A stretch of 24,000 bases of DNA from NCBI GenBank assembly GCA_036480335.1, contig JAZGGH010000106.1:12309-36308 (forward strand). The letters run 5' to 3'. Below, in pieces: positions 1 to 19,144 of the stretch; positions within the stretch are counted from its first letter, which is position 1, and each line of letters begins with the position of its first letter. The notes beneath the pieces were generated by a model. That model ran no database searches. It was not told where the DNA came from and was given only the letters and a program-made list of their open reading frames with translations. The DNA comes from Gammaproteobacteria bacterium. Lineage in GTDB: Bacteria > Pseudomonadota > Gammaproteobacteria > DSM-19610. The position numbers and the translations under genes were made by a program.

Positions 1-1
1 T

Positions 2-724: not shown

Positions 725-730
725 CAGGAT

Positions 731-2218
731 TCAGGGCCATTGAGCCAGCCATGCCTGGCTGGCAGCGGCGGTGATATTCAGAATGCTGTCAGGCCAAAAG
801 CCCGGTAGCAAAATAAGGAGGGTGAGTATTGTAATCAGGAAGAGTTCTCTTGGTCGTAAATCCAGTGAATCCCTGATGACATCGTTGCTGACAGGCCCTA
901 AAAAGCTGCGCCGATAAATACGCAGAAAATACCCTGCGCCGAGGATGATGGCAAATAATGCCGCCAGACCTGCTCCCGTGTGTTTGGAAAGTGCGCTGAT
1001 GATCAGCAATAACTCGGCAGGAAACCCGTTGGTGCCGGGTACACCTATGCTGGCAAGTCCAAAGAAGAAATAAAAGCCTGCAAGTAAAGGCATGGCGGTA
1101 GCAATGCCGCCGAGTCGTATGATATCCGTTGATCCAATGCGGTGATGCAGGAAGCCGGTTAACAGGAAGAGGCCAGCGGAGACGGTGGTGAAATTCAGTA
1201 ATTGAAACAGCGCACCCTGTATACCATTGATGTTGAACGAAGCGATACCCAGCACCACAAGGCCAACGTGACTGATGCTGGAAAATGCCAGCATGCGGCG
1301 TAAGTTTGTCTGTGCCAGTGCCACCAGTGCGCCATAAAGGATACCCACCACGCCAAATCCGGCGAGTAACCAGTGGTATTCGGCAGCAGCCTGAGGTGCC
1401 AATGGCAGAGTAAAACGAATCAGGCCATAGACGCCAAGTTTTAAGCCGGTCATGATGGCGGCAATGGCTATCGGGCCTTCCATTGCAACGGTCGGCAGCC
1501 AGGTATGAAATGGAACCACAGGCACCTTGACGAGAAACCCGAGTAGCAGAAGGAAGAAAACCAGTTGCTGCATGTTAGCTGGCAGGTTCTCTGCTATTAG
1601 CACGGTGTAATCGAAGATTAAACCTTCCGGTATGCCACCACCATTGATGCTGGCATGATTGAATGCCAGCAACAGGAAGCCAAATAATAGAGGGATTCCA
1701 CCGGCCATCATAAACAGCGTGTATTTTACAGCAGCATAGCGTCTGTGTGGGCCTATGCCCCATAAACTGATCAGGAAGTAGATGGGGATCAATGTCAGTT
1801 CCCAGAAAAAGAAAAACAGCATCGTATCGAGCGCACAAAAAATGCCAAGTGTGGTACTTTCGAGCAACAGTAATAAAGTGTAGTAGAGGCGAGGCAGGAA
1901 GGTAACGCCGTTCCAGGAGGCGAGCAGAATAGCATTGAACAGTAAGACAGTCAGGGGCAGAAACAGGACGGAGATGCCATCAATACCTACGTGGTATTGA
2001 ATACCCAGGCTGGGAATCCAGCTGAGCCGTTCAACATACTGGAAGTTCGGGTTGCTACTGTCAAAGCCAAGCAATATGCCAAGCGCGAGAATCAGGTCGA
2101 CAACGGCGGTTGCCAGAGCAATCCAGCGCGAAAAACGTGCCGGAACAAGCCAGATCAGGGCTGCACCGATGGGTAGAGTGATCAGAATCAGGCTGATTAA
2201 AGGTAAACTGCTTAGCAT
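731..2218 (-). CDS. NuoM/NuoN/MrpD-class proton-antiporter-like membrane subunit (paralog 3, last gene of the DAB-type operon)
   Basis: 495-aa polytopic protein. Family signatures are visible: FFFFWELTLIPIYFLISLWG (TM5 Glu), GFLVKVPVVPFHTWLPTVAMEGP (TM7 Lys), GLKLGVYGLIRF (TM8 Lys) and GTNGFPAELLLI (TM12 Glu). It shares a strand with the upstream paralog and starts 23 nt after that gene's stop. Confidence 0.85.
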   Translation of the reverse strand: MLSSLPLISLILITLPIGAALIWLVPARFSRWIALATAVVDLILALGILLGFDSSNPNFQYVERLSWIPSLGIQYHVGIDGISVLFLPLTVLLFNAILLASWNGVTFLPRLYYTLLLLLESTTLGIFCALDTMLFFFFWELTLIPIYFLISLWGIGPHRRYAAVKYTLFMMAGGIPLLFGFLLLAFNHASINGGGIPEGLIFDYTVLIAENLPANMQQLVFFLLLLGFLVKVPVVPFHTWLPTVAMEGPIAIAAIMTGLKLGVYGLIRFTLPLAPQAAAEYHWLLAGFGVVGILYGALVALAQTNLRRMLAFSSISHVGLVVLGIASFNINGIQGALFQLLNFTTVSAGLFLLTGFLHHRIGSTDIIRLGGIATAMPLLAGFYFFFGLASIGVPGTNGFPAELLLIISALSKHTGAGLAALFAIILGAGYFLRIYRRSFLGPVSNDVIRDSLDLRPRELFLITILTLLILLPGFWPDSILNITAAASQAWLAQWP

Positions 2219-2241
2219 GAGAAGGATATTCCGTTACGCAT

Positions 2242-3789
2242 CTATTTCGGACTGACAGGGCTGTCTGTGTGTATTTCCGGTGTTGCATAAATCATTTCGA
2301 GGCTGTCCAGAGAAGGTTCGATCAGTTTCAGCCAGGGTTCTGAGTAGAATCCTGCGCCCAGTAATATCAGAATAATGGTGATTGCCAGAATGCGTTCCAT
2401 AAAGGTGGCTGGCTCCAGTTCTTTTTTGCGTGGTTCTATCTGAGGTGGAGACAGGAAGGCGCGCTGGAAGGACCACAACAGGAAACCTGCTGCAGCAACA
2501 TTGCCGAGGGCTGCTGCAATAGTGACTAAAGCCCCAAAGCGTTTGATGGAGGCTTCCATCATTAAATGTGCTGCATCAAATCCGGGCGTGCCCGGCATAC
2601 CGATAATTGAAAGGCCGGCAATCAGGAAGGCGGTGCCAATAAACGGGAATTGTTCAAACAGGTTCCCCAGTCGCGGCAGTGATAACGTATGGGTGCGGCG
2701 GTATATAAGCCCGGTCATAAACAGGAGCCCGGCGGTAGCCAGTCCGAAATTCACAGAGAGTAGAATACTGCCCTGAAAGCCCAGTTTATTCAGGGTAAAT
2801 AAACCGATAACGATGATGCTTGTATGACTGACGACCGCGTATGCCAGTAGACGGCGCATGTTTGTCTGTATTATTGCGAGTAAAGCAGCATAGAAAATAC
2901 CGATGACGGCAAAGGCGACTACCCATTCATCCCAGAGTTTGATGGCATCGGGCACCAGCGGAAAAACAAAACGGACTAATCCGTAGATGCCTGTTTTTAG
3001 TCCGAGCAGAAAGACGCCGGCGACGGCGACAGTGCCATGCTCGGCCATGACAGGCAGCCAGCCATGCAGTGGAAACAGAGGGATGCGAATCGCCAGTCCA
3101 TAAAACAGGAGAAAGAAAATACTCACGGAGAGAGATTCCGGAAGGGGTTCATTTATCAGGCTTTGCAGTTCAAATGACCAGATGCCGTTATGTGCATCGG
3201 CATAGTTCCAGCCAAGGATAAAGACGCCTGTGAATAACAGGGCTAAACCGGTACCCATGAATTGCAGATAGCGTTGCCGGGCAAGGTCTTCCTTCGGTGC
3301 GTTTGCCCAGGCTTTGAGAATGAAAGCGATTAATATCAGTTCAACTGTTGAAAGCAGCGAGAACCATAATAAATTCTGCGTGCAGAAAAGGCTTTGTAAC
3401 GAGGCTTCGATGGCGAACACAACCGCAATGAATTTTGAATATGGATGGATTTTTCGTATATGTCCATAAAGCACAATCAGCAAGGTAATGATGGTAGTCA
3501 TAAGCATGAATAGAACGGACATACCATCAACGGCTGCATGATAAATAACAGGAGGCAACAGGTCGAAGCGTTCTGATAATTGCAGAGCACTGGTCTTGCC
3601 TTCCAGTGTGTAGTACAGATTAATGGCAATCATTAACTCAGCGATGGAAAAACCAATGGCAGTGGCTAACAGAAGGCGGGAATGTCGCAGCAACAGAACC
3701 ATGCCAAGCGCAACCAGTGGCAATAATTGCAAGGTAGCCAGGATAGGGTATGCGGATTGTGCTGACCAGTGAAGTTCAGGGATGCTCAT
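2242..3789 (-). CDS. Divergent NuoM/MrpD-like membrane subunit (paralog 2) with substitutions at canonical charged residues
   Basis: 515-aa polytopic protein with the family core IPLFPLHGWLPVMAEHGT...GLKTGIYGLVRF. In a by-eye alignment the TM7 Lys is Arg (LAIRIP), the TM5 FWE motif reads LLSTVE, and the TM12 GFxAE reads GFDAAH. The start ATG shares 1 nt with the dabB stop (TAATG, 3787-3791). Confidence 0.8.
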   Translation of the reverse strand: MSIPELHWSAQSAYPILATLQLLPLVALGMVLLLRHSRLLLATAIGFSIAELMIAINLYYTLEGKTSALQLSERFDLLPPVIYHAAVDGMSVLFMLMTTIITLLIVLYGHIRKIHPYSKFIAVVFAIEASLQSLFCTQNLLWFSLLSTVELILIAFILKAWANAPKEDLARQRYLQFMGTGLALLFTGVFILGWNYADAHNGIWSFELQSLINEPLPESLSVSIFFLLFYGLAIRIPLFPLHGWLPVMAEHGTVAVAGVFLLGLKTGIYGLVRFVFPLVPDAIKLWDEWVVAFAVIGIFYAALLAIIQTNMRRLLAYAVVSHTSIIVIGLFTLNKLGFQGSILLSVNFGLATAGLLFMTGLIYRRTHTLSLPRLGNLFEQFPFIGTAFLIAGLSIIGMPGTPGFDAAHLMMEASIKRFGALVTIAAALGNVAAAGFLLWSFQRAFLSPPQIEPRKKELEPATFMERILAITIILILLGAGFYSEPWLKLIEPSLDSLEMIYATPEIHTDSPVSPK

Positions 3790-5357
3790 TACAGAATAAC
3801 CACAAAAGTGAGGAGTAACATTAACAGCAGGTAGCGTGGCCGGCTGAGCATTTCGTCAACCCTGGTGAGTACTTCTCCGAGACGAATAACGGCATGCAGG
3901 ATGCCGTCATCGCCACCTTTCAATACCAGATGCTCTTCAAACCAGTGCAGCAGTGATGCGATCCATTCCATCAGTTTGCCCAGTAAACCGCGACCACGAC
4001 CGATGTCTCCGGAATCGCCGTCCAGTTGCATGCTGTGTGTGCTTTTTTGTTTTTCCCATTGCGCCAGTGATGAGACAGCGCCAATTGAGCCAGGCAAACC
4101 CACCAGTCGATTAACAACCTGCTGGTCGAAGGCTTGTGCATCGCGGGCGAGTGCAAGTGTCGGTTTTACAAATAGCCAGTCAGTTATCTGTTCCAGCCAG
4201 AAACGTTGCAGGGCTGCGGTGTAAAGCTGACGACGTTTTTGAATCCAGGCAGGTACGAAGCGGGTGTGTCCATTCAGTAAATGCATCATGGCGGGTGCGC
4301 TGAGGAAGTGATAGGCGCGCCAGATAGCATGTGCGACAAGATGCCAGAGTGCAAATTCAAACCAGCCCAGCCCACAGGCAAGAAACATCAGTCCGGTCTG
4401 ACCGGTGGTCGAAAACATTAATGCACTTTTGACATCCGTTTGTACCAGGCTGCCAATAAATCCGTAGAGTGCGGTGGCTGCGCCAATGATGGCGATCATC
4501 CACATAAGTTCAGGGGTGTGCATCAATAAAGGTTGCATGCGTATCAGTAGGAAAACGCCGGCATGCACCATCAAAGAGCCATAAAAAATAGCACTTGAGG
4601 GGGTTGGTCCTTCCAGTGATCGTGCAATCCAGGGAGAAAACGGGATTTGCGCTGACTTGGCCATGGCTGCCAACAATAATCCTGAAGCAATCAGTCCGGA
4701 ATGAAGGCTATCCAGAACGCCTGTATGGATAAAGATATCCGGCCATTCTGTACTGTTTATCCAGAAGAAAGATAAAATGATGGCGAGTAAAAAGCCGGTA
4801 TCACCTATTTTGTTAGTCACAAATGCCCGAGTAGCATTGTCTGCGGCGGTGGTGCGTTCATGCGAGTAGGCAATCAGTAAATACGAACAAACGCCAGCAA
4901 GTTCCCAGCCGACAAACATCAGCAGGGTATTGCCGGCCATAACAATCAGCAGCATGGCGGCAGTAAAGAGGCTCATGATCATGAAAAAACGTGGGTAACC
5001 TGCTTCACGATGTAGATAGTTGACCGAGAAATGCAGCGTGATCAGAGACAGCAGGCTGACCAGATGCGCCATAATGAGCCCGGGAGTGTCCAGCAAAAAA
5101 CTGATGTTGATATGATAGTCGCCACTATGAAACCAGGTGAATACCTGAATATACCCCGGCAGTTTCCCGTTTATCAGGGCAAATAGGTCGGCGTACAGGA
5201 GTATTAGAAAAGACAGGGTAGCGGCACTCAGGGCAATGCGCCGGGTTTGCCGTTCACCGGCTTCATCCCGGTTGCTTCCAGAAACATAGCCTGCGGCAAT
5301 CATTAATGCGGCAAGCAGCGGCAGTGCTGGTACACATGCGATAATCCAGTCAGGCAT
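3789..5357 (-). CDS. dabB: DabB: NuoL/MrpA-like membrane subunit of a DAB-type CO2 uptake complex
   Basis: NuoL-class motifs are VGWELAGVCSYLLIAY and AAMAKSAQIPFSPWIARSLEGPTPSSAIFYGSLMVHAGVFLLIRM. It lies immediately downstream of the DUF2309 gene. I place the start at ATG 5357 (MPDWIIACVPALP..., 522 aa) rather than the track's 5444, because the longer ORF would overlap 95 nt of dabA. The chosen ATG sits in ATGCCTGA, an 8-nt overlap with the dabA stop. Confidence 0.8.
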   Translation of the reverse strand: MPDWIIACVPALPLLAALMIAAGYVSGSNRDEAGERQTRRIALSAATLSFLILLYADLFALINGKLPGYIQVFTWFHSGDYHINISFLLDTPGLIMAHLVSLLSLITLHFSVNYLHREAGYPRFFMIMSLFTAAMLLIVMAGNTLLMFVGWELAGVCSYLLIAYSHERTTAADNATRAFVTNKIGDTGFLLAIILSFFWINSTEWPDIFIHTGVLDSLHSGLIASGLLLAAMAKSAQIPFSPWIARSLEGPTPSSAIFYGSLMVHAGVFLLIRMQPLLMHTPELMWMIAIIGAATALYGFIGSLVQTDVKSALMFSTTGQTGLMFLACGLGWFEFALWHLVAHAIWRAYHFLSAPAMMHLLNGHTRFVPAWIQKRRQLYTAALQRFWLEQITDWLFVKPTLALARDAQAFDQQVVNRLVGLPGSIGAVSSLAQWEKQKSTHSMQLDGDSGDIGRGRGLLGKLMEWIASLLHWFEEHLVLKGGDDGILHAVIRLGEVLTRVDEMLSRPRYLLLMLLLTFVVIL

Positions 5358-8300
5358 GTTTGACCGCCGAATTCTGTTGATCGATGAGAGCAGGGGGCAG
5401 TGGCTCAGTATGTCCTTTGTACCAATCTTCAGAGTTGGAAACACGGGTTAAAGGCGTGTTTTCATGTTCCCAGGGAATGAATCCTTCTCCCGGTTTAAAG
5501 ACACTGATTTTGCCTGTTTCAGGATGAATCGCGCTGAGTAATAACCAGCCGTTGCCGACCAGTTGTTGCAGGGGCGGTTGGCGCATATAGATTTTTGTCA
5601 GGGTTTCTTCTGTGGCTTCAACGAGTACCTGTAAGCGCATGGCTTCGTGAATTTCTATCATTTGTTTGGGTAAGCCAGTGCGCAAATCGCTGGATGTTCC
5701 CTGCATGACGCCGAGCAGCCCTGTGACATTATGCGTGACTTTGGAGCCGCAGCCATACTGGTCGTTATTCACCGCCGAGAAATAATATTCGAGGTTGATG
5801 CCGGCGCCAACCGGACCGGCTGTTAATAAGATATTCTCGACAATGCTGCCGTCCGGGTCATAGGCCGGATCGTATGAAATCAGAAACACTCGCCGATCAA
5901 AAAATGCGCTCTGGCTGATGGAGCGCCGACCGATAATGGCGGCAGCATTGGTGGCATGCCCCAGTTCAGGCCGAGCCTGACTAAAATCTTTGCTGCGAGC
6001 GTAGATATGTCTCAACGCTTTTGTTCTGGAATCCCCTTTGGGCGCAGATGCCAGTCGGCGTGAGCGTTCATGTGCAGAACCCAGTGTGGCGATGTACAGA
6101 CCTTTTTGCAGATGGGTAAAGTTTTCCTGCAGCGATGCGGGTATCTGATCGCGGTCATACCAGATGATGTTTTCGTCACAAGTATTATGCTCTGCGCCCA
6201 GCACCCAGGTATCGTCTGGAATATCGATACCGCGTTCGCGCAACAAACGACGAATCGCAGGACGGTTTGCGATGGCGGCAAAAGCGCGAGCATTGGGCCC
6301 ACCATGCCGACCGCTACAGGCGCCGCAATCATAGGCGGCCAGATGGGGATTGTTTTCACTGATGGAGCCATGGCCCATCATGACAACAAAGGGAGCCAGT
6401 GTATGCTGCAGACCGATGGTGCGCAGAAAGCGTTCAATATGGTCTGCCTGCTCTATATCGGTTAAACCAACACGGGGTGTTTCGGGTGTTGCCGGTTTAT
6501 CAGGCTGCTCTGTATTGATCGTGATTTCTGTTGCTACCGGCACACTCAGGGTTTTGCGTTTGTTTTCCAGCCAGCGACCAAATCGGCTATACACCCAGGT
6601 TTTTGATGTCAGTACGGCGAGTGTAACCGGTGCATTTATTAGCACCAGACAGGTGGTTACGAGGAGATTACGGCGTGTTTCCTGGAAAACCAGATTCTGC
6701 AGCTTTTGTCCTGTTGAGAGGCGCTGTTTGCGTTTTTGCAACAGCGCTTCCTGGTGTGGTTGTGGGTGTTCCTGTATTTCATAGGAAGGTGTGGCAACCA
6801 CAGGGCACAGCGGGGTGATTTGTTCATCGTCCAGGCCCAGCCAGTTAATCGGCAAACCAAAAAACCCGCCTGCGCCGAGGGTTTCAATGTCCGGGTTATG
6901 CTCTTCCAAATGTCGCCGCATGCCTTCTTCGCGGTCATCCATGCAGAAAACGATTTGTGCATCGGGTCGTTTATCGCGTGTTTTCCAGAGCCCGCGGCCA
7001 TGATTTTGTATCACGGCATTGAATAACTGATCACGATAATGTCGTTCGTATGCCTGTAGCCAGATAAAGCTGGCCTGATGTTTATCCATGGCTTTAAGGC
7101 AATTAAATATCCTGTCAATCTGGGTTATATCCAGCTTGCGTATTTCAGCATCACTTAAGCCCAGATGTTGTGACAGGCGGAATAGTGGCCAGGCGCTATT
7201 GAACAAATTGTAGCTGCTCGGGTTGCCATTCGATGTGCTGTGTTGCCAGGTCCAGATGAGGTGTGCAAGGTGCCACCATTGCTGTTCATCCGGTGTGCAG
7301 ATGTCAGAACAGTTGAGGTGGTTTTGCGCCAGTGTTGATAAGTATTCGGGCAAGTGTTGGTTATAAAAATTTTGCCGCACCATGAATTCAGCCAGATGGT
7401 GTTTGAAGTACCAGCGAATCACATCAATACTGGCTTCGATCTGCCATAAATTCCGACACAGTCGCTGAGCAAACAGCCGCTCCAGCACCAGTCGCACGGC
7501 AAGATAATCCATCATGTTGACATTGACGTTTGTCAGGCCGTCATAGCCTGGACGGTTATGTCGCCACAGAAACATGCCCGACCATCCCGGTAGCTCAAGC
7601 GCCAGACGTTGCAGGTAGCTTTCCCATTTGCCTTCATCAATTCCGAGCCAGCGTAATTCGATAACAACCGTATCAAAAGCGTCTTCAGGCAAAGCATCTA
7701 GCGTATCTGCCCAATCCGGAAAATCATCAAAAACGCTTGTCTTATCAAACACAGCGCTCTTGCGCCAGAAAGTGTAGAAGCCTTCCTCTCTGCCCGGACC
7801 TGGCCAGGCAGAAAATCCCTGGTCAAGAAAGGCGGCCATATAACGGATCAGTAGTGGCCGCATTTGTTCCAGCAAATCTTCGCCGGTGAGTTTTTTTAGC
7901 ATGCCTTCCAGCGTGAGTTTCTCACCAATTTGACTGAATAATTTATCCATATCACGACGTGCATGTTTGCGGATGAGAAAGTCAATGACAGGCTGATCAT
8001 CAGGGTGATCATCATTTGCCAGCGTTTGTGACAACATGCTTTCAGCTTTTTCCGGTGTCAGGTCAAGCATGTCTTCCGGGTGGGCGATGAAATGATCCAG
8101 ACCCAGTATGTGCAGGCAGGCTGACCATAAATCAAAAATAGCCTGGTGTTCGTTCAGATCAGCTGTTTTCAGCAGGCGTTCGCGCGCAATGCTGTCAATG
8201 TCAGGCTGAAAGGCATGCAGCGCATTCAGTTCACCAAGCTGCCAGTTAATCTGGCATCCGGTGACCGGTTTAATCGGATGTAACAGCCGAGCGAGATAAA

Positions 8301-8643: not shown

Positions 8644-10109
8644 AATGACAGTCCGGAAAAAAGCGCGCCAAGCTGGGCGACAGACGCAGACATCATCGCC
8701 AGGACTGTGTGGGGTGCGATGCCGATGCTAACGATACAAACGGATAATAATCCGGCGGCAGCCACTTCGGAGCCGTGTAGATCCTTGATCTTGTGCATAC
8801 CCGGCCGTACCGGGCCTGTAAACAGGCGGCCGATTGTACGTATCGAATAAGCGGCGCTGATCATAATGCCCAGACTGACCAGCAGCATCACCCAGCCCCA
8901 GCGTTCAAATCCGCCAATGATGGTATGCAGTTCTGCGATGAAACCGGCAGTGCCTGGAATGCCCATTCCGGCCAGTAGTGCCAGTGAGGTGAAAAAGGCA
9001 AAGCGTGGGGTCACCTGAATCAGCGAACTGTAGTGATTAATGTCACGCGTGTTGGTGCGTTCATAGAGCAGGCCGATCAATAGGAACAGGGCTGCCGCGA
9101 CCAGCCCGTGAGCGACCATTTGCATCACTGCACCGCTCAGGCCGGCCTTGTTTAAAGAGGCGATTCCCAACAGAACAATGCCCATATGACTGACTGATGA
9201 ATAAGCAATCATGGCTTTCAGGTCCGTCTGTCGCCAGGCGAGCAGCCCACCATATATCAGGCTGAACAAAGCCAGGCCTGCGAGAATATTTTGCAATGCC
9301 AATGCGGCCTCGGGCAACATGGTGACTGCTCGAATCAGTCCGTAGCAACCCATTTTCAGCAGAATCCCGGAGAGCAGAATACTCACAGGGCTGGGCGCTT
9401 CAACATGCGCAAGCGGTAACCAGCCATGCAGGGGAAAAATCGGCATCTTGACGCCAAAACCCAGTAGCAGGCCGAGAAAAATCAGTATCTGGGTGTGGAC
9501 AGGCAATAATCGGGCGCCGGTGGCGATATCCTCTATATAAAAGGAATGCCCCGGGATCGCATCAAACACAACCAGCAAACTAATCAGCATGAACACGGAG
9601 CCGCCCATCGTGTATAACACAAAATTCAGTGCCGCCTGATGCTTGCGTTTTCCACCCCAGCGATCGATCAGAAAAAATAGTGGGATCAGTGTCAGTTCCC
9701 AGAAGATGTAAAACAGTGACCAGTCCTGTGCCATAAAGACACCCAGCATCGCCGTTTCCAGAATCAACATGAGTGAAAAATAGGCTTTGTAATTTGTCAG
9801 GATTTTATTAGAAACCAGAATAGCCAAAAAACATAGCAAGGTTGCCAGCAGCACCATCGGATAGGAAATCCCGTCGATACCCAGAGCAAAGGAGGTGCCC
9901 AGTCGCGTGTTCCAGGGAGTAATATGGCTGAACTGCAGTGCAGCAGAGGAAAAATCAAAATTGAATAACAGGCTCCACGACAGCGCCAGTGTGGCAACGG
10001 ATGTCGCGATCGCTATGGCGTGGATATGCTTTCGGCTCTGTTTCGGCCAAAAAGCAATCAGTACCGTCCCCAGGAGCGGCATGCCCAGTAATATGGTCAA
10101 TACATGCAT
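8640..10109 (-). CDS. NuoM/NdhD/MrpD-class proton-antiporter-like membrane subunit (paralog 1, first gene of the DAB-type operon)
   Basis: 489-aa polytopic protein with a fully canonical signature set: FYIFWELTLIPLFF, GFGVKMPIFPLHGWLPLAHVEAPSPVS, GILLKMGCYGLIR and GTAGFIAELHTI. Its stop overlaps the dabA start as ATGA (8640-8643). Confidence 0.85.
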   Translation of the reverse strand: MHVLTILLGMPLLGTVLIAFWPKQSRKHIHAIAIATSVATLALSWSLLFNFDFSSAALQFSHITPWNTRLGTSFALGIDGISYPMVLLATLLCFLAILVSNKILTNYKAYFSLMLILETAMLGVFMAQDWSLFYIFWELTLIPLFFLIDRWGGKRKHQAALNFVLYTMGGSVFMLISLLVVFDAIPGHSFYIEDIATGARLLPVHTQILIFLGLLLGFGVKMPIFPLHGWLPLAHVEAPSPVSILLSGILLKMGCYGLIRAVTMLPEAALALQNILAGLALFSLIYGGLLAWRQTDLKAMIAYSSVSHMGIVLLGIASLNKAGLSGAVMQMVAHGLVAAALFLLIGLLYERTNTRDINHYSSLIQVTPRFAFFTSLALLAGMGIPGTAGFIAELHTIIGGFERWGWVMLLVSLGIMISAAYSIRTIGRLFTGPVRPGMHKIKDLHGSEVAAAGLLSVCIVSIGIAPHTVLAMMSASVAQLGALFSGLSL

Positions 10110-10391
10110 GAGTTTTTCATTTTTAGGGTGTGGCGACGAGCTGTACTATTGCTCGCGAGTATTAGCAGCATAAATATACCATAATCAGGCAGGGTTGCAG
10201 GCGTTTCATTGGTCTGCAATCTACCCGTAAAATGATGGCGCATTTTATGTCATGGTCTTTGATAATCATGCAATATATTGCATTGCGATACTGCGATAAT
10301 TTTGTGCTACTGTCACCTGATCAAGGGAAACTGCAGGAGTTTTTCGAGAATTTTCTGTATTCAGTCAATTCTGATTCAGGATCAGAGACCG

Positions 10392-11540
10392 CTAAAAAGG
10401 TAGCAATATCTCTTTTGCTTTTTCCATTGCGTGGATGGCTAATTCAAGATCAACTTTGTCAGGATTTTCTGCGGACTGGGCATTGAGTTTTTCAAACAGC
10501 TCCGCTTGTTCCCAGGTCCAGTGATTGTCGTTCGTATCTTTAATATACGCTGCCCAGGGGATGAATTTTGTCAGTGGGAAAAGCTGGCCTTGATTGGGTG
10601 AAATATCCACATTCAGGCCGGATATGAACATGACGTTTTTTCCCCGATAAGCGTTGTCCTGCACGATAGTCCTGAACGCCCGATCAAATTCTACCTGGGT
10701 GTTGGCCTGGGCAGCGGTCAGGGCAGGCGATCCAGAAGTGACTATATAAGGCATGACGTCTAGCAGATTATTTTCCAGATGGTCACGACCTTCTTCCTGT
10801 TGCTGGGCCGTTTGTCGGCGAAAAAAGAACATGCCAGGATGCAGGCGATCGCCGATGGGTTCACCTTTGCCGGGCTTCCATTCATACCCTTGCAGGAGAT
10901 TGCGTAATGCAGGTGAGGGTGAGAAAGTTTTTGAGGTGCTCTGGGAGTGGCGTATTATCGGATTACCGCTCGAATCCACTTTAACCAGATCTTCCAGTTT
11001 AAGGATTAAGCCCTGGCTTCTGTCAGCATTATGTAGCTGATTATCAATAATAATTTCCGGGCCGGTTTTGCCCTCGCGCAGCAGAATGTTATTTTTGGCA
11101 AACGTATATTCACTCAGGTACCAGTCCAGTGCGCCACAGATTTTTCCACAGCTTGTGGTTTCTTCCTGCTGCTCAGTCTGCAGGCGTCGATAAACGCCAA
11201 ATGTTCTGGATTGTGGGTCGTATCCAACATGGCTCGCCTGGATGATGACAAGGTCCTTGCCATGATGTGCGTAAGGGCCGTGGCGATCAGTTGCCACGAC
11301 GCCTCCCACCAGGCCGTGGTTGAAGGGGAATGAGCCAAAATGCTTGGCAATCAATATGATAGGGTAGCCCTGGCTTTCGTCAGAACAAAATGCCCGCGAT
11401 GGCATGATTTTACCCTGCTCAAAACCTAGCGATTTAGCCAGATTATAAAGTTTTGGCACAAACAGGCTATATCGCATGGAAGTGGGTAGCATCTGGAAAG
11501 AATCAAGCAAGTCTGCAATTGAGCTGCTGGTGCCGTACAT
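10392..11540 (-). CDS. Soluble uncharacterized protein; candidate LCIB / theta-carbonic-anhydrase-like (beta-CA fold) protein
   Basis: 382-aa ORF with an AGGGA Shine-Dalgarno 6 nt upstream and no long hydrophobic segments. Candidate metal ligands are AFCSDESQGYP (Cys52, nt 11385-11387; Cys-x-Asp), ASHVGYD (His104, nt 11229-11231) and SCGKICGA (Cys131/Cys135, nt 11136-11150). The spacing is close to the Cys46/His102/Cys126 triad I recall for Phaeodactylum LCIB4. That the ORF is coding is solid; the family call is tentative. Confidence 0.5.
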   Translation of the reverse strand: MYGTSSSIADLLDSFQMLPTSMRYSLFVPKLYNLAKSLGFEQGKIMPSRAFCSDESQGYPIILIAKHFGSFPFNHGLVGGVVATDRHGPYAHHGKDLVIIQASHVGYDPQSRTFGVYRRLQTEQQEETTSCGKICGALDWYLSEYTFAKNNILLREGKTGPEIIIDNQLHNADRSQGLILKLEDLVKVDSSGNPIIRHSQSTSKTFSPSPALRNLLQGYEWKPGKGEPIGDRLHPGMFFFRRQTAQQQEEGRDHLENNLLDVMPYIVTSGSPALTAAQANTQVEFDRAFRTIVQDNAYRGKNVMFISGLNVDISPNQGQLFPLTKFIPWAAYIKDTNDNHWTWEQAELFEKLNAQSAENPDKVDLELAIHAMEKAKEILLPF

Positions 11541-11707
11541 AGCAATCCCTGTGATTATGATCGATGCCAGTGTACTTGGCTGGTTTGGTAATCGCCAGTG
11601 CAGGTGATTGAATCGTTAATTAAAGCCGATTCTGATACGATCTCATGCATTTTTAGTTAAAATATTTTTAGAGTCATTGTATAGACGATTGCTTAAAGCG
11701 ATCGCTA

Positions 11708-11733
11708 TTTATATAGATAATTATCTATATAAA
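11708..11733. promoter_or_regulatory. 26-bp perfect palindrome TTTATATAGATAATTATCTATATAAA in the cbbL / LCIB-like divergent promoter region; candidate CbbR (LysR) operator
   Basis: I checked all 13 base pairs on each arm around 11720/11721 by hand. The palindrome lies 137 nt upstream of the cbbL ATG. Its half-site ATTATCTATAT (11720-11730) recurs exactly at 19070-19080, just upstream of cbbR. The adjacent CTATTTATA (11705-11713) recurs at 19103-19111. Confidence 0.45.
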
Positions 11734-11869
11734 AGATAAGAAATTTCAATTGGCATAACTCTAGATGGTCTGTATGCTATATAGCTGATTTTTCACTGTT
11801 CTCTAAAAGTTTTGTTTAAAGGCTTTAAATTTTTCGATAACAATTTATTTGTTCACAGGAGACAACGAT

Positions 11870-13288
11870 ATGGCTAAAACCTATAGTGCGGGTGTAAAAG
11901 AATACCGCGAAACGTACTGGACACCAGATTACTCAGTAAAAGAAACAGACATTCTGGCTGTTTTCAAAATTACACCACAAGACGGTGTTCCTCGTGAAGA
12001 AGTTGCTGCTGCAGTAGCTGCTGAATCTTCAACAGGTACATGGACTACAGTGTGGACTGACTTGTTAACTGACCTTGATTACTACAAAGGCCGTTGTTAC
12101 GCAATCGAAGACGTTCCAGGTGATGACACGTGTTTCTACGCTTTCATCGCTTACCCAATCGATCTATTTGAAGAAGGTTCTGTTGTAAACATCCTTACGT
12201 CTTTAGTGGGTAACGTATTCGGCTTTAAAGCACTACGTGCACTTCGTTTAGAAGATATCCGTTTCCCAATTGCTTACGTTATGACTTGTAATGGTCCACC
12301 ACAAGGTATTCAAGTTGAGCGCGACATCCTAAACAAATACGGTCGTCCTTTATTAGGTTGTACTATCAAACCTAAACTTGGTCTTTCTGCTAAAAACTAC
12401 GGTCGTGCTTGTTACGAAGGTTTACGCGGTGGTCTTGATTTCACTAAAGATGACGAAAACGTAAACTCTCAACCATTCATGAGATGGCGTCACCGTTTTG
12501 ACTTCGTTATGGAAGCGATTCATAAAGCTGAAGCTGAAACTGGCGAGCGTAAAGGTCACTACCTAAACGTTACCGCTCCAACTGCTGACGAAATGATGCG
12601 TCGTGCTGAATATGCGAAAGAACTTGGCGCGCCTATCATTATGCATGACTACTTAACGGGTGGTTTATCTGCAAACACACAGTTAGCTCAATGGTGTCAA
12701 AACAACGGTATGTTGTTACACATTCACCGTGCTATGCATGCTGTACTTGACCGCAACCCGCACCACGGTATTCACTTCCGCGTACTCACTAAAGTTCTTC
12801 GTTTGTCTGGTGGTGATCACCTTCATTCAGGTACTGTTGTGGGTAAACTGGAAGGCGACCGTGACGCAACTTTGGGTTGGATCGACACAATGCGTGATTC
12901 ATTTATTAAAGAAGATCGCTCACGTGGTTTATTCTTCGACCAGGATTGGGGTTCTATGCCTGGCGTAATTCCAGTAGCTTCTGGTGGTATTCACGTATGG
13001 CACATGCCTGCACTAGTTTCTATCTTCGGCGATGACTATTGTCTTCAGTTCGGTGGTGGTACATTAGGTCACCCTTGGGGTAACGCTGCGGGTGCGGCTG
13101 CTAACCGTGTTGCTGTTGAAGCATGTGTTGAAGCGCGTAACTCAGGTGTTGAGCTTGAGAAAGAAGGTAAGGATATCCTTACTAAAGCGGCTAAACATAG
13201 CCCAGAGCTTGCAATTGCAATGGAAACCTGGAAAGAGATCAAATTCGAATTTGATACGGTTGACAAGATTGACGTAGCGCATAAGTAA
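11870..13288 (+). CDS. cbbL: RuBisCO large subunit, form IA
   Basis: [21 protein letters not shown]..., the catalytic [10 protein letters not shown] (carbamylated Lys at nt 12446-12448), HIHRAMHAV and [12 protein letters not shown]. The start is ATG 11870, with AGGAG (11857-11861) 8 nt upstream. The track's TTG at 11849 adds 7 unlikely residues. 472 aa. Confidence 0.97.
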
Positions 13289-13302
13289 AAGTGTCATCTA
13301 GC

Positions 13303-13341
13303 ACGTTCTGGCGGCGTTGTTTTTCGCGCCAGCCAGAACGT
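13303..13341 (+). other. Strong stem-loop in the cbbL-cbbS intergenic spacer (14 bp with one bulge, 10-nt loop)
   Basis: ACGTTCTGGC (13303-13312) pairs perfectly with GCCAGAACGT (13332-13341). Beyond a bulged A13331, GGCG (13313-13316) pairs with CGCC (13327-13330). No U-run follows, so this is not a classical terminator. It is more likely an mRNA stability or processing element. Confidence 0.4.
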
Positions 13342-13389
13342 ACTATCTAACTACTTTTCGCATAAACAAATTATTTTGGAGTAACTCAA

Positions 13390-13749
13390 ATGAGTGATGT
13401 ACAAGATTACAATTCGAGCTTAAGCGATGCTGCTGCAAGCCGTAAATACGAAACTTTTTCATACCTGCCTACTTTGAGCAAAGAATCTACTCGCGCTCAG
13501 ATTCAATATATCGTTGATAAAGGCTGGAATCCGGGTATCGAACACACTGAACCAGAAAATGCATTTAGCAATTACTGGTACATGTGGAAATTGCCTCTGT
13601 TTGGTGAAACCAACGTAGACACTATCATTGCTGAGCTTGAGGCTTGTCATAAAGCCCATCCGGACAATCATGTTCGTCTGCTAGGTTTTGACAACTTTGC
13701 ACAGTCTGCTGGTGCAGCAATGGTTGTTTACCGCGGCATATCTGTATAG
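13390..13749 (+). CDS. cbbS: RuBisCO small subunit
   Basis: 119 aa. [51 protein letters not shown] is a typical form IA small subunit. TGGAG Shine-Dalgarno upstream. The gene lies 101 nt after cbbL. Confidence 0.93.
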
Positions 13750-13775
13750 ATAACAGGTTGTCCTGTCGCTGATTG

Positions 13776-13812
13776 AAGCCTCTGCCGGACGCGTATCTGT
13801 CAGAGGCTTTTT
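13776..13812 (+). terminator. Rho-independent terminator/attenuator after cbbS
   Basis: AAGCCTCTG (13776-13784) pairs with CAGAGGCTT (13801-13809), giving a 7 bp GC-rich core plus 2 A-T pairs and a 16-nt loop. It is followed by a T5 run (13808-13812). Downstream cbb genes start only about 40 nt later, so it probably acts as a partial attenuator. Confidence 0.55.
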
Positions 13813-13852
13813 GCTAAATGCAAGGCAATATTTATTGCTTTAGGGAGTGGGT

Positions 13853-14164
13853 ATGAAGCGACCTGATAAATATATTGGCGTCCACAACGAAGTCAATGGT
13901 GGCATGACCACGATTGGAAAAATTATCCGTGATGCCTGGGTGTTTGATTTGATTGAAGAAACTGAAACCTGTGAAGGCTGGAATTTTGCGGGTATTGATG
14001 CCTTGCTGGATAAGGTCAATCATGAATGGGATAAATATGGTTGTTTAGCAAGTAATTTGCCATCTGAATTGTTTGAGAAACATCAACGAATTCATGGCCA
14101 GGCAATCAAGAATGCTCATGCTGCCGGTTGGTCTGGTGAGGTGGAAACTGAGGATGAAAAATAA
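13853..14164 (+). CDS. Small acidic hypothetical protein encoded between cbbS and cbbQ
   Basis: 103 aa from ATG 13853, with GGGAG (13843-13847) 5 nt upstream. The track's GTG at 13847 adds 2 residues. The sequence is MKRPDKYIGVHNEVNGGMTTIGKIIRDAWVFDLIEETETCEGWNFAGIDALL...EVETEDEK. I recognise no family. Support comes from the RBS, the ORF length and the in-operon position. Confidence 0.6.
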   Translation: MKRPDKYIGVHNEVNGGMTTIGKIIRDAWVFDLIEETETCEGWNFAGIDALLDKVNHEWDKYGCLASNLPSELFEKHQRIHGQAIKNAHAAGWSGEVETEDEK

Positions 14165-14237
14165 ACTATCCGGATAGAATTTATATTTAAGTGTAATTTA
14201 TAATAGAACAAGGTCTTGCAATTAAGAGAGAGTAGCT

Positions 14238-15059
14238 ATGTCCATTACTGAAAATGTTGTAGATACCGAACAATACATCATCAAAGATGAGCCTTACTAT
14301 GAGCCTGTTGGTCAAGAAATAGAGTTATACGAATCTGCCTATGACGTCCGTATGCCGATGATGATAAAAGGTCCTACGGGCTGCGGTAAATCTCGATTTG
14401 TAGAATACATGGCATGGAAACTGGGCAAACCATTAATTACGGTGGCTTGTAATGAAGATATGACCGCTTCTGATTTAGTGGGTCGTTTCCTGCTTGATAA
14501 AGATGGTACAAAATGGCAAGACGGTCCACTGACGACAGCGGCGCGTATGGGTGCTATCTGTTACCTTGATGAAATCGTCGAAGCACGCCAGGATACCACG
14601 GTTGTTATTCATCCACTTACCGATCACCGTCGCAGTCTACCATTAGATAAAAAAGGTGAGTTGATTCAAGCACACCCTGATTTTCAATTGGTTATTTCTT
14701 ATAACCCCGGTTATCAGAGCTTGATGAAAGACTTAAAGCAGTCAACCAAACAGCGTTTTGGTGGTATGGACTTTGATTATCCCGAAGAAAAAATAGAAAT
14801 CAGTATCGTTGCTAAAGAATCGGGTGTTGATGTTGAAACGGCTGAGAAGTTGGTACACATCGCTCACCGTGCACGTAATCTCAAAGGCCACGGCCTGGAT
14901 GAAGGTATATCTACTCGTTTGCTGGTTTATTCTGGTCAGTTAATTGGTAAAGGGGTAGCGCCACTGGATGCATGTAGCATGACAATGGTAACGCCTTTAA
15001 CAGATGATCCTGATATGCGTGATACACTGAATGCAGCGGTTGAAACGTTCTTTGGATAA
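14238..15059 (+). CDS. cbbQ: CbbQ, MoxR-type AAA+ ATPase subunit of the CbbQO RuBisCO activase
   Basis: 273 aa. The Walker A motif GPTGCGKS is at nt 14370-14393 and the Walker B is AICYLDEIVEA. The overall sequence resembles the CbbQ/NirQ/NorQ family, and a cbbO gene lies downstream. Confidence 0.93.
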   Translation: MSITENVVDTEQYIIKDEPYYEPVGQEIELYESAYDVRMPMMIKGPTGCGKSRFVEYMAWKLGKPLITVACNEDMTASDLVGRFLLDKDGTKWQDGPLTTAARMGAICYLDEIVEARQDTTVVIHPLTDHRRSLPLDKKGELIQAHPDFQLVISYNPGYQSLMKDLKQSTKQRFGGMDFDYPEEKIEISIVAKESGVDVETAEKLVHIAHRARNLKGHGLDEGISTRLLVYSGQLIGKGVAPLDACSMTMVTPLTDDPDMRDTLNAAVETFFG

Positions 15060-15249
15060 AGAGTTCACTACCTTCATAATAATTGAAGGTAAGTAAGCTT
15101 GCTGTCATGCAGCAGGTTAAATTCGCAAAAATTTAGAAATTTTTAGTTTCAAATAAGTGCTGTTATTTAATAAGTGTGATAGTACTTATCAATGCCAGTC
15201 ATGTCGCTTTTTGTAAAAGAGAATAGTGATTGGTGAATGAGATGAAATT

Positions 15250-17598
15250 ATGTCAATAAAGCTCGAAGACTACGAAGATTTTCTTAAAGATGCGGCTCCT
15301 GAAATCAGAGACGTATTAAACAGCACCTTTCAAGAAGCCTCACGGGTTATGTCACCAGCTGGCTTGCAAATCTATATGGATGGTGCAAAAAGTCTGTGCG
15401 ATTTAGGTCGTGGCTCAGATGTGGTTATTTCCTACATTCAAGAAATGCCACTGGTCGCAAAAGAATGTGGTGAAGATGTTATCGGTGATTGTTTAAGTGC
15501 AGCACTGAAACTTTCATCGATGACCTCTGCCGAAGTTGTCTCCCTGTTGTTTTCAAGTATGCCGTCTGCCGCTCGTAACCTGGGTGATGCTGAATTATTT
15601 CGTGGCTATTTAACCCTGATCCATCAGTTAGCCTCCACCGCTTCGCGTGGTGTGCGCCCAATGTTGAATCAAATTGACGAGTTGCTATCAAAATTAACCT
15701 TAAGTGGATTGCGGCGCTGGGCTAATTTTGGTTCTCAGGCTTATCGTCGTGATTTTGATAATCTTACGGCTTATTTCAATCTTGAGTCGGCTGATAGTCG
15801 CGCTATGTTGTCCAGGGAACGTCGCGGTATTCTATTTGTAAAAACTCAGCGCAGGTTAAATTTTTACCTCCGAGCTTTATGGGGACGTGATTTTTTCTTA
15901 CGCCCTACAGGTGCTGATTTTGCCGACTTTCGTCCTTATATCGAACACCGTATATTTCACCTGCCTGATGCGCTTGACGACTATGGCGATATCCCTGGAC
16001 TAGAAGTCTATCGTGCGACTGCAGCGCATATGGCATCACATATGGTTTATTCTTCGGAACCTATTTCAGCAGAGGGCCTCAGCCCTGCTCAAATGTTTTT
16101 TATCGGCCTGGTTGAAGATGCTCGTATTGAATATAAAGCCGTGGCTGAATTCCCTGGGCTTAAAAAGCTTTGGCGTCGGATGATGCAAGAAGCTGATCAT
16201 GAGAACAATAAACCAGAACATCGATCTATGCCGATTCTAGTGCATTTCTCACTTATGTTGCTAGATGATAGCATCACCTCAGATGACAAAGATTTAAATA
16301 ATCTCGCAAAGAATTTCCACGAAGGTATCGAAAAAAATCAGGATAACAACAAGTTTTGCTGGAATCTGGGTTTGGATATTTTCAACTTGTTCTCAAAGCG
16401 TAAAGAAGTCCCTAGCCTGCGTGTTTTGGAACGTATTGATATACCCTACCGTGATGACAATCGTTATGTTTGGGAGTTTGAAGAATTCACGGGAGACGTA
16501 GAGTTTGACTATGTGCCCGCCAGCCAACAACAGGTAAGACGTGAAGTTAGTGCGCTGATGATGGCGCACGAAGTGGATTGCGAACTGGCTGGTGATGATG
16601 CCCAGGAAATCTGGACCAATAAAGACGTCATGCGTTTTTACGAAGATGATTTAACTGATGGCGCTGCAAGTTTCAATGATGCCTGGGGTAAAGAGCCGGT
16701 TTCAGATCCTTATCATTATCAAGAATGGGATTACCAAATTCAGTTGCACCGACCTGATTGGGCAACGGTTTATGAGCGTCGTCAACCACGCGGTCATCTC
16801 GAAGATATTCAAATGATTCTTGACGAATATAAGCCAATTGCACATCGCATAAAACAAATCATCGACCTGCTCACACCTGAAGGTGTACAACGTGTGCGTA
16901 ATATGGAAGATGGTGATGAAGTCGATATCAACGCCGCCATTGATGCGATGATAGCGATCCGTATGGGTGAACAACCAAACCCCCGTATTACCATGCGCAA
17001 CGTATTAAAAACGCGTGATTTATCCGTGGTGTTATTGCTCGATTTGTCGGAATCTACCAACGAACCCATGAATGGTTCTGACAAAACAGTATTACAATTA
17101 ACGCGAGAAGCGTCTACCCTGGTGGCAACCGCTATCGAAGGTATTGGTGATCCGTTCGCCATTCACGGCTTCGCATCTGATGGCCGCCATGATGTACAGT
17201 ATTATCGCTTTAAAGACTTTAATCAGCATTTTGATGATGAAGCCAAATCACGTCTGGCGGGCATGAAAGGTGGACTATCAACCCGTATGGGAGCGGCATT
17301 GCGACATGCGGGTAATCACTTGTTAAAACAACAGGAACGACGTAAATTGATATTGATGATTACTGATGGAGAACCCGCAGATATTGATGAACGCGATCCA
17401 CAGCATTTGCGCCACGATACTAAAAAGGCAGTTGAAGAGTTGTATAGCACAGGCGTATTGACTTATTGTTTAACGCTTGATCCGAATGCGGATGACTATG
17501 TGAAAAGAATCTTTGGCGCGAATAACTATACCATTATCGATAATGTAGAAAAATTACCCGAACAATTGCCAACTTTGTTTGCCAGTCTGACGGCTTAG
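15250..17598 (+). CDS. cbbO: CbbO, von Willebrand factor A-domain adaptor of the CbbQO RuBisCO activase
   Basis: 782 aa. The C-terminal VWA domain carries the MIDAS motif VVLLLDLSEST (DLSES at nt 17041-17055) and a downstream ITDGEPAD. The size and the position after cbbQ are typical. Confidence 0.9.
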   Translation: MSIKLEDYEDFLKDAAPEIRDVLNSTFQEASRVMSPAGLQIYMDGAKSLCDLGRGSDVVISYIQEMPLVAKECGEDVIGDCLSAALKLSSMTSAEVVSLLFSSMPSAARNLGDAELFRGYLTLIHQLASTASRGVRPMLNQIDELLSKLTLSGLRRWANFGSQAYRRDFDNLTAYFNLESADSRAMLSRERRGILFVKTQRRLNFYLRALWGRDFFLRPTGADFADFRPYIEHRIFHLPDALDDYGDIPGLEVYRATAAHMASHMVYSSEPISAEGLSPAQMFFIGLVEDARIEYKAVAEFPGLKKLWRRMMQEADHENNKPEHRSMPILVHFSLMLLDDSITSDDKDLNNLAKNFHEGIEKNQDNNKFCWNLGLDIFNLFSKRKEVPSLRVLERIDIPYRDDNRYVWEFEEFTGDVEFDYVPASQQQVRREVSALMMAHEVDCELAGDDAQEIWTNKDVMRFYEDDLTDGAASFNDAWGKEPVSDPYHYQEWDYQIQLHRPDWATVYERRQPRGHLEDIQMILDEYKPIAHRIKQIIDLLTPEGVQRVRNMEDGDEVDINAAIDAMIAIRMGEQPNPRITMRNVLKTRDLSVVLLLDLSESTNEPMNGSDKTVLQLTREASTLVATAIEGIGDPFAIHGFASDGRHDVQYYRFKDFNQHFDDEAKSRLAGMKGGLSTRMGAALRHAGNHLLKQQERRKLILMITDGEPADIDERDPQHLRHDTKKAVEELYSTGVLTYCLTLDPNADDYVKRIFGANNYTIIDNVEKLPEQLPTLFASLTA

Positions 17599-17599
17599 C

Positions 17600-18043: not shown

Positions 18044-18122
18044 GTTTTTGCTCTCCTGAGTTCTATCCAGAACTGTATCTTACCGCATATTGATACGTTG
18101 GTTAAATTGAAGATGGGCTGGT

Positions 18123-19064: not shown

Positions 19065-19069
19065 CAGCT

Positions 19070-19112
19070 ATTATCTATATTTATAGTGAGTTTGTTTTAT
19101 AACTATTTATAG
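19070..19112. promoter_or_regulatory. cbbR / phosphatase divergent control region carrying copies of the cbbL-operator motifs
   Basis: ATTATCTATAT (19070-19080) is identical to 11720-11730. CTATTTATA (19103-19111) is identical to 11705-11713. Both lie in the 80-nt spacer between the cbbR ATG (19064) and the phosphatase start (19145), which fits LysR autoregulation. Confidence 0.35.
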
Positions 19113-19144
19113 GTGTGTTGTCTAGCGGTTTTGGGAGGTGGACG

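Follow-up and report, generated by a model that had tools for sequence, protein, structure and literature searches.

A 24,000-nucleotide (nt) stretch of a gammaproteobacterial contig (JAZGGH010000106.1, positions 12,309 to 36,308), hereafter the window, is a genome fragment of the sulfur-bacterium type, in which a RuBisCO operon lies back-to-back with a gene for an LCIB-like protein and a cassette of genes for a DabA complex. We read the window as an inorganic-carbon (Ci) supply island, where a free, non-encapsulated form IAq RuBisCO would be served by an LCIB-like carbonic anhydrase (CA) and a DabA complex, and give this reading about an even chance of being right. The component families are all known and the logic of combining them has been shown synthetically; their combination in nature is new, and so are two variants that are uncharacterised.

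The genome that carries the contig is also represented by ENA ERZ25083849 NODE_109, ERZ25073240 contig_11, and NCBI GCA_044240345.1 JAZHCG010516795.1, and relatives are JAZGER01 (SCS4bin.26) and CBDDAF01. Long open reading frames (ORFs) of the window were mapped and then scanned against Pfam and NCBIfam, and gene calls made independently on the source contigs match the window ORFs. On the minus strand (731-11540), the transcription order is the LCIB-like gene, a 282-nt gap, and genes for NuoM-like, DabA, NuoL-like, NuoM-like, and NuoM-like proteins. The plus strand (11870-17598) has cbbL-cbbS-orf103-cbbQ-cbbO. The spacer between the two arms is exactly 329 nt, as the original prediction had stated. 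The same arrangement of RuBisCO, LCIB-like, and DAB genes is present in the closest relatives, L003 and, loosely, L017, so it is not an assembly accident. The features are listed below, with protein lengths in amino acids (aa).

731-2218, minus strand: NuoM-like antiporter subunit 3, 495 aa, last cassette gene (PF00361, E 3e-61; TIGR01972 NDH_I_M, 461 bits)
2242-3789, minus strand: NuoM-like antiporter subunit 2, 515 aa (PF00361, E 7.9e-34; TIGR01972, 291 bits)
3789-5357, minus strand: truncated NuoL-like protein, 522 aa, in the DabB position (Proton_antipo_N and Proton_antipo_M)
5350-8643, minus strand: long DabA, 1097 aa, β-CA-like catalytic subunit (PF10070, E 2e-237)
8640-10109, minus strand: NuoM-like antiporter subunit 1, 489 aa, first cassette gene (PF00361, E 7e-71; TIGR01972, 485 bits)
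10110-10391, minus strand: 282-nt spacer from the LCIB-like gene to the cassette, a possible internal promoter or leader
10392-11540, minus strand: LCIB-like (theta-CA-like) soluble protein, 382 aa, putative cytoplasmic CA (PF18599, E 4.5e-5, 23.3 bits, cutoff 25)
11541-11869, no strand: 329-nt AT-rich divergent intergenic region
11870-13288, plus strand: cbbL, form IA RuBisCO large subunit, 472 aa (RuBisCO_large, E 5.6e-138)
13390-13749, plus strand: cbbS, small subunit, 119 aa, with a long IAq-type N-terminus (RuBisCO_small, E 5.9e-38)
13853-14164, plus strand: orf103, 103 aa, in the slot between cbbS and cbbQ (no Pfam or NCBIfam match)
14238-15059, plus strand: cbbQ, AAA+ RuBisCO activase subunit, 273 aa (AAA_5, E 7.9e-33; CbbQ_C, E 2e-32)
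15250-17598, plus strand: cbbO, VWA-domain activase adaptor, 782 aa (C-terminal VWA, E 1.1e-9)
17600-18043, minus strand: orf147, 147 aa, convergent on cbbO (no family match)
18123-19064, minus strand: CbbR-like LysR regulator, 313 aa (HTH_1 and LysR_substrate; CbbR NF045990, 233 bits, cutoff 450)

The RuBisCO operon and the carboxysome question

The closest solved structures to CbbL are 9iqo (E 3e-288) and the form IA enzyme of H. neapolitanus, 1svd (1.5e-279), and form IB, IC, and ID enzymes score below the form IA matches. Compared with the carboxysomal 1svd_M, CbbS is longer by 7 residues between DY and KYETFSYLP. This segment is 11 residues long, and its counterpart in the carboxysomal subunit of H. 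neapolitanus is KQSL. The best solved match of CbbS, 9iqo_a, also has the long N-terminal form. Badger and Bek reportedly described in 2008 that the IAq small subunit carries an N-terminal insertion of about six residues relative to carboxysomal IAc. Judged from the long CbbS N-terminus and from cbbQ/cbbO downstream in place of cso genes, the RuBisCO is of the IAq type, and the original assignment to this non-carboxysomal pattern is thus borne out. The downstream cbbQ/cbbO is not decisive alone, because CbbQO can also occur within cso clusters, as the title of PMC8718961 indicates.

Canonical IAq operons on unrelated contigs (L095-L098) contain the same structural genes in the same order, orf103 included, and cbbO is also found downstream of cbbQ in L095-L097. 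In the canonical layout, cbbR diverges from cbbL-cbbS-orf103-cbbQ-cbbO, as a LysR gene does from cbbL in L095 and L097. In the window, by contrast, it is the LCIB-like gene that diverges from cbbL, and the gene for the CbbR-like LysR regulator is displaced downstream of cbbO and orf147. A counterpart of orf147 is present in L017 at 36% identity, and ORFs of 150-151 aa stand at similar positions after cbbO in L095 and L097.

Homologs of orf103 form 1745 clusters, and the top matches are 76-89% identical. The gene always lies between cbbS and cbbQ in IAq-type operons, also at 8001-8312 in both L095 and L097. Its predicted structure is small and mostly helical with a three-helix core, at a predicted local distance difference test (pLDDT) score of 77.5, with low confidence over the first ~17 and last ~7 residues, and the model has no fold match in the Protein Data Bank (PDB). 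The orf103 product may be an overlooked factor associated with RuBisCO or CbbQO. We considered it as a RuBisCO linker or chaperone, and hence as evidence of a condensate, but rejected this on account of the three-helix core, the low-confidence ends, and the lack of a PDB fold match. No CsoS2-like, CcmM-like, or disordered linker protein is encoded at the locus, and the condensate-based arrangement offered by the original prediction is not sustained.

Among the window ORFs of at least 80 aa, none matches carboxysome Pfam families. A probe for the bacterial microcompartment (BMC) shell, validated at 89 bits against PF00936, gave no match in tblastn at E ≤ 10 either in the window or in 98 related loci (1.39 Mb), which are LCIB-like, DabA, or orf103 loci. 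The ~10 kb beyond each window end have no carboxysome genes, which makes ~44 kb in all without cso. The claim that the window is free of carboxysome genes therefore stands, and under the supply-island reading the rest of the genome would be without carboxysomes too.

The LCIB-like protein and the five-gene DabA cassette

The LCIB-like protein belongs to a large family. Its homologs form 2525 clusters at 90% identity, mostly 380-381 aa long, and 447 clusters at 50% identity in an exhaustive library; 409 species-level matches were found in GTDB genomes. Those homologs that have a named source belong to symbionts of tubeworms, lucinids, and Solemya or to Sedimenticola. The isolate Cocleimonas flava DSM 24830, which bears the cassette, also has the LCIB-like gene (L065). 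When 30 diverse members were compared with PF18599 (LCIB_C_CA), 22 of them matched at E ≤ 0.01, the best at 9.4e-9. A profile search against PDB sequences gave a chance match only, so the relationship to LCIB rests on a near-threshold Pfam match together with the fold and the conserved residues.

An AlphaFold2 (AF2) model of the protein has a pLDDT of 74 and a predicted template-modelling (TM) score of 0.78. Its significant Foldseek matches in PDB are to the LCIB family only, namely 6kfs, PtLCIB4 (5b5y, 5b60, and 5b5z), CrLCIB (5k5w), and LCIC (5b5x); six of the eight have a probability of 0.99-1.00 and a target-normalised TM score of 0.59-0.64. Over 30 representatives of 28-56% identity, C52, H104, and C131 are invariant and D54 is at least 90% conserved. 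H104 and C131 are located in stretches of moderate model confidence (block means about 78 and 72). The conserved C-x-D...H...C is the pattern that would be expected of a β-CA-type zinc site, and we take C52, H104, and C131 to be equivalent to C46, H102, and C126 of PtLCIB4, reportedly described by Jin et al. 2016. No signal peptide and no transmembrane segment are predicted. Sequence and model together place the family as a remote sister of canonical LCIB, and the protein is most likely a cytoplasmic CA, albeit a putative one. The CA call of the original prediction accordingly keeps its support from the LCIB fold and the conserved zinc ligands, but not from the PF18599 score, which is below the cutoff.

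One family member, P0123 (486 aa), has a C-terminal response-regulator receiver domain (PF00072, E 5.6e-29), a fusion that hints at a signalling role for some LCIB-like proteins. No paper linking LCIB with such bacteria was found in the library searched.

The cassette has the order NuoM, long DabA, truncated NuoL, NuoM, NuoM. DabA aligns to the solved DabA2 (9rd0_A, E 2.5e-72), and in this alignment C567, D569, R571, H758, and C773 correspond to C351, D353, R355, H524, and C539 of DabA2. Judged by this alignment, the RuBisCO operon does adjoin a genuine DabA-based system, and the zinc site is intact. The earlier description as a DAB-type operon is correct in this respect, but the operon has five genes rather than the canonical two. 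DabA has a single hydrophobic segment (residues 659-680). Homologs of ~1090-1140 aa are widespread, occurring in gammaproteobacterial metagenome-assembled genomes, Solemya symbionts, Sedimenticola, and Thiogranum.

The start of the PF00361-type NuoL-like gene overlaps the DabA stop by 8 nt, so that the two are translationally coupled. This subunit covers just the first ~355 of 615 NuoL positions, and is nearer to NdhF1/NuoL (6hum_F, 9e-65) than to DabB2 (9rd0_B, 1.4e-30). The best solved relatives of NuoM-like subunit 1 are ND4, NuoM, and NdhD1 (E 1e-90 to 1e-81), and the NuoM-like subunits in general are near this group, at around 1e-90.

The gene order of the cassette is invariant in all six unrelated contigs sampled via DabA homologs (L089-L094), and the same order is found in L003, L014 (a Solemya velesiana symbiont), and L020 (a lucinid symbiont). 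The NuoL-like subunit and the next NuoM-like subunit are fused into one 1031-aa protein in L093 (13362-16457), which supports their physical association. Phosphoribulokinase (PRK) is encoded directly, or almost directly, downstream of the cassette in two large contigs that are unrelated (L089 19673-20572 and L090 18016-18915), tying the cassette to the CBB (Calvin-Benson-Bassham) cycle independently of RuBisCO. In L061, the matches to NuoM1 and DabA are broken into several fragments (244-5209), and 1 kb downstream there is a second match to the LCIB-like gene, a partial one (12146-12346); the fragments could reflect pseudogenisation or an assembly error.

Under the name 'clade C', a neighborhood survey of 2017 had grouped ybcC/DabA-nuoL loci that have additional NuoM and SulP genes, on bioinformatic grounds only and at a time when DabA had no known function (PMC5700660). 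We found no study of how the five-gene variant functions, and the searched passages of the 2026 paper on the DAB2 structure (PMC13144422) do not mention it.

Genomic linkage and intergenic regions

Neighborhoods were counted in 10 kb around the gene at 80 species-level LCIB-like loci. A SulP/STAS transporter is near the LCIB-like gene in 14 loci, the five-gene cassette in 11, an NhaD-like antiporter in 7, and an Mrp-type antiporter cluster in 4 (L032, L035, L041, and L042). Relative to the cassette, the gene takes at least three orders: upstream on the same strand, as in the window, downstream on the same strand, and divergent. Conversely, it is missing from five of the six cassette loci sampled via DabA homologs, and none of the six has RuBisCO beside the cassette. 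The LCIB-like gene is thus tied to Ci-uptake genes generally, and the cassette to CBB genes.

In the four Mrp-type loci, the LCIB-like gene adjoins a complete multisubunit antiporter cluster (at 2595-12945 in L041), which contains a conserved ~90-aa ORF between antiporter subunits. SulP/STAS is also present in L041, L042, and L032, with none within the L035 locus, and an NhaD-like antiporter in L041, L032, and L035, with none within the L042 locus. These neighborhoods look like a sodium cycle combined with bicarbonate uptake.

In L053 (160-4443), cbbS-cbbL is divergent from a LysR gene, which is followed by the LCIB-like gene. The cbbS there has a short IAc-like N-terminus (MAEVQDYKQAIKFETFSYLP), and the contig ends directly after it. 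To judge from this sequence, the LCIB-like gene may also neighbor a carboxysomal-type RuBisCO. In tubeworm symbionts, the LCIB-like gene follows a histidine-kinase-like gene (cluster c10, assigned by sequence reading) and an unannotated gene, c23, and no cbbL or Ci-uptake gene was detected in the ~10 kb flanks of these loci.

The 329-nt spacer has promoter-like hexamers in both directions, in numbers no higher than in shuffled sequence. Promoter and terminator scans in general gave counts that do not exceed those of shuffled sequence. A 26-nt perfect palindrome, TTTATATAGATAATTATCTATATAAA, is located in this spacer at 11708-11733 and contains a TNA-N7-TNA match. It was rejected as a shared operator, being conserved in neither L003 nor L017, which have only weak, different inverted repeats. 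The 282-nt spacer has no terminator-like site on the minus strand, folds slightly better than its shuffles (z -2.56), and is partly conserved, by local similarity, with L003 only. The gaps upstream of NuoM1 in other loci range from 127 to 870 nt, and no leader or promoter motif upstream of NuoM1 is common to eight cassette loci. A scan of the whole window against Rfam found no match. The original prediction had both units controlled from a single region; the divergent 329-nt spacer is there, but joint control from it is unproven, because the hexamers are at the shuffled level, the spacer is poorly conserved, and the 282-nt gap precedes the cassette.

Beyond the CbbR-like gene, the window has a histidine-phosphatase gene divergent from it, an SQR-like flavoprotein gene (423 aa), and a SixA-like phosphatase gene (19115-21898), a block that is syntenic in L017. 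STAS, CheY, and CheA genes at 22142-24000 open a chemotaxis cluster, which forms the flank at the RuBisCO-side end. A 210-aa minus-strand ORF at 22213-22845 was discarded as spurious, because it overlaps the genuine plus-strand STAS and CheY genes. The flank past the DAB cassette contains a NUDIX/ThiE gene, genes for a molybdopterin oxidoreductase with FeS and DmsC subunits, an SNF2 helicase gene, and an ATP sulfurylase gene.

Competing explanations and known systems

In the supply-island reading, the arm cbbL-cbbS-orf103-cbbQ-cbbO would provide RuBisCO and the CbbQO activase, and the other arm an LCIB-like zinc protein of the cytoplasm, soluble and most likely a CA, and then the five-gene DabA complex. 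By analogy with DAB2, the β-CA-like site of DabA would hydrate CO2 to HCO3- at the cytoplasmic face, and ion flow through the attached antiporter-like subunits would make this hydration one-way; further ion channels would come with the three extra NuoM-like modules. On the same analogy, the cassette is a putative system for taking up CO2 in an energy-coupled way and accumulating HCO3-. [quoted passage not shown] Here, CA activity of the LCIB-like protein, the coupling stoichiometry, and co-regulation with RuBisCO are what we infer.

The original prediction supposed that a free CA must short-circuit a HCO3- pump, a premise that is outdated. When rubisco, DAB2, and a cytosolic CA were combined without carboxysomes, cells grew in about 1% CO2 and, if weakly, also in air, futile cycling arose only at extreme co-expression, and the state was proposed as an intermediate in how the CO2-concentrating mechanism (CCM) evolved (Flamholz 2022; PMC9894237). 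The 'conundrum' of a transporter together with a cytosolic CA in non-carboxysomal CBB organisms has also been discussed (Scott et al. 2024; PMC10880623).

Several observations weigh against the supply-island reading. RuBisCO is near the LCIB-like gene in only 3 of the 80 loci (L003, L017, and L053). The co-localisation that the original prediction pointed out is real, but the back-to-back arrangement is confined to one lineage and is not a conserved design. The G+C content at third codon positions (GC3) is 0.51-0.62 for the LCIB-like, DAB, and molybdenum-oxidoreductase genes (window 1-11540), of which the LCIB/DAB side spans 0.51-0.60, and 0.34-0.39 for the RuBisCO operon and chemotaxis genes (11870-24000), and the boundary, a jump of about 0.15-0.2, falls at the 329-nt spacer. 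This shift suggests a mosaic locus whose two arms have different origins, and, given the boundary and the 3/80 adjacency, co-function with RuBisCO may be recent or incidental. The 329-nt spacer is poorly conserved in L003 and L017, and the 282-nt spacer separates the LCIB-like gene from the cassette. As to the LCIB-like protein itself, the PF18599 match (residues 27-141, 23.3 bits) misses the gathering cutoff of 25, the model has a pLDDT below 50 over residues 44-91, which cover the proposed ligand C52 and D54, and Chlamydomonas LCIB is said by Jin et al. 2016 to have no measurable CA activity in vitro. In L091 (6374-8303), an ordinary β-CA (Pro_CA, 205 aa) and the LCIB-like gene are side by side upstream of the cassette, so the LCIB-like protein may not be a redundant plain CA. 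Finally, the related lineage Thiosocius has carboxysomes (PMC7705117).

Some of these points would be explained if the cassette and the LCIB-like gene served a carboxysome encoded elsewhere, with the IAq adjacency as a lineage-specific rearrangement and the IAq enzyme as a high-CO2 isoform. Many chemolithoautotrophs have both IAc and IAq enzymes, and the rarity of RuBisCO beside the LCIB-like gene, its absence from the DabA-sampled loci, the GC3 shift, the short IAc-like small subunit encoded at the contig end in L053, and the carboxysomes of Thiosocius all fit. We nevertheless consider this explanation unlikely, if a serious one. Genes for transporters of dissolved inorganic carbon that serve carboxysomes often adjoin cso loci, but no BMC gene was found within 10 kb of any of the 98 LCIB-like, DabA, or orf103 loci, the window and its flanks (~44 kb) are free of cso genes, and the cassette is linked to PRK, SulP, and CA genes, not to cso. 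A more ambitious account takes the LCIB-like protein and the five-gene complex for a true carboxysome-free CCM of sulfur-oxidising Gammaproteobacteria, a counterpart of CO2 recapture by algal LCIB. The four antiporter modules would then make a pump of high ion-to-CO2 ratio, and the pump and the theta-type CA would keep CO2 in the cytosol, around the free IAq RuBisCO, at a level above ambient. It seems rather improbable to us; if true, the 'CA plus Ci uptake' stage that has been proposed for CCM evolution would have a living representative.

An opposite account, in which CO2 is not raised for RuBisCO, has the cassette and the LCIB-like protein mainly supplying HCO3- for anaplerotic or biosynthetic carboxylation, or serving ion or pH homeostasis as DAB/MpsAB does in heterotrophs. 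DAB homologs do occur in heterotrophs and pathogens, as passages of PMC13144422 have it, and Flamholz 2022 credits the benefit of CA and DAB mainly to HCO3- demand and judges it unlikely, at the permeabilities measured for membranes, that CO2 is truly pumped (PMC9894237). The Mrp/NhaD sodium-cycle genes beside the LCIB-like gene in other genomes and the tubeworm-symbiont loci, with neither cbbL nor Ci-uptake genes detected, point the same way. The linkage to the CBB cycle is repeated, however, through cbbLS in the window, L003, L017, and L053 and through PRK in L089 and L090, and four antiporter-like subunits would be costly for a small anaplerotic demand, which makes this account quite improbable. 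Very unlikely, in our view, is that the LCIB-like protein, instead of being a free CA that equilibrates CO2 and HCO3-, is dedicated to ion-coupled Ci systems as their partner, for example for one-way CO2 recapture or as a CO2/HCO3- sensor. Algal LCIB is thought to work in CO2 recapture, and the ordinary β-CA of L091, the recurrence next to antiporter-like modules both with DabA (cassette) and without it (Mrp, in L032, L035, L041, and L042), the receiver-domain fusion of P0123, and the position after c10 and c23 in tubeworm symbionts would all suit such a partner. The protein, however, has no transmembrane segment or docking motif that was found, its gene order relative to the cassette varies, it is absent from five of the six DabA-sampled loci, and its C-x-D...H...C pattern is that of a catalytic β-CA-type site.

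If the supply-island reading is right, the locus is a compact natural test case, with an energised CO2 pump and a cytosolic CA encoded next to RuBisCO and its activase. At stake is the idea that Ci uptake and CA are older than carboxysomes and useful without them, for which the only demonstration so far comes from E. coli and Cupriavidus strains that were engineered. The analysis also flags two widespread uncharacterised families, the five-gene DabA complex on complex-I-type subunits and the bacterial LCIB-like family. Both are found in ecologically important chemosynthetic symbionts and sediment sulfur oxidisers, and both are candidate parts for simpler CCMs that might be engineered into crops or industrial autotrophs.

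Compared with the alpha-carboxysome (cso) locus, the window differs in having no BMC shell, CsoS2, or CsoSCA genes beside cbbLS among its ORFs. With DAB2/DAC of H. neapolitanus and Hydrogenovibrio crunogenus, the cassette shares a PF10070 DabA with the same Cys/Asp/Arg/His/Cys site, the overlap of the DabA gene with a downstream truncated NuoL-type PF00361 subunit, and, by analogy, a likely mechanism of energy-coupled one-way CO2 hydration (passages of PMC13144422). Unlike DAB2, it has five genes instead of two, a DabA longer by ~270 residues, three additional NuoM-type subunits, and a NuoL-like subunit closer to NuoL/NdhF1 than to DabB2, and it is not in or beside a carboxysome locus.

The cyanobacterial NDH-1MS and NDH-1MS' complexes (NdhF3/D3/CupA/CupS and NdhF4/D4/CupB) similarly place a soluble CO2-hydrating zinc protein on NuoL-like and NuoM-like subunits of the complex-I type, but the cassette is without a CupA/ChpXY domain, an NDH-1 core, or a redox module, and would be energised by an ion gradient instead of electron transfer. 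Membership in the Cup/NDH-1MS group was rejected, there being no ChpXY match and only 150 bits to TIGR01960 ndhF3_CO2 against a cutoff of 588.7; no cassette subunit attains the NdhF3-family cutoff, and the subunits are not orthologs of NdhF3/D3.

The LCIB-like protein resembles LCIB/LCIC of Chlamydomonas and the diatom theta-CAs PtLCIB3/4 in fold (Foldseek probability ~1; target-normalised TM score 0.59-0.64 to 6kfs, 5b5y, and 5k5w_B, and 0.51 to LCIC 5b5x), in the conserved Cys-His-Cys with a C-S-D motif, and in a gene context of CO2 acquisition. It differs from them in being only 10-15% identical, below the Pfam cutoff and with no sequence-level PDB match, and in being a bacterial, cytoplasmic protein of ~380 aa with large insertions, whose CA activity is putative.

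The nearest parallel in logic is the set of engineered strains of E. coli CCMB1 and Cupriavidus necator, in which rubisco, DAB2, and a cytosolic CA work without a carboxysome and the three functions are compatible and beneficial at intermediate CO2 (PMC9894237). In the window, by comparison, the three are encoded at one natural locus, where the putative CA is LCIB-like rather than Can and the DAB is a five-gene variant.

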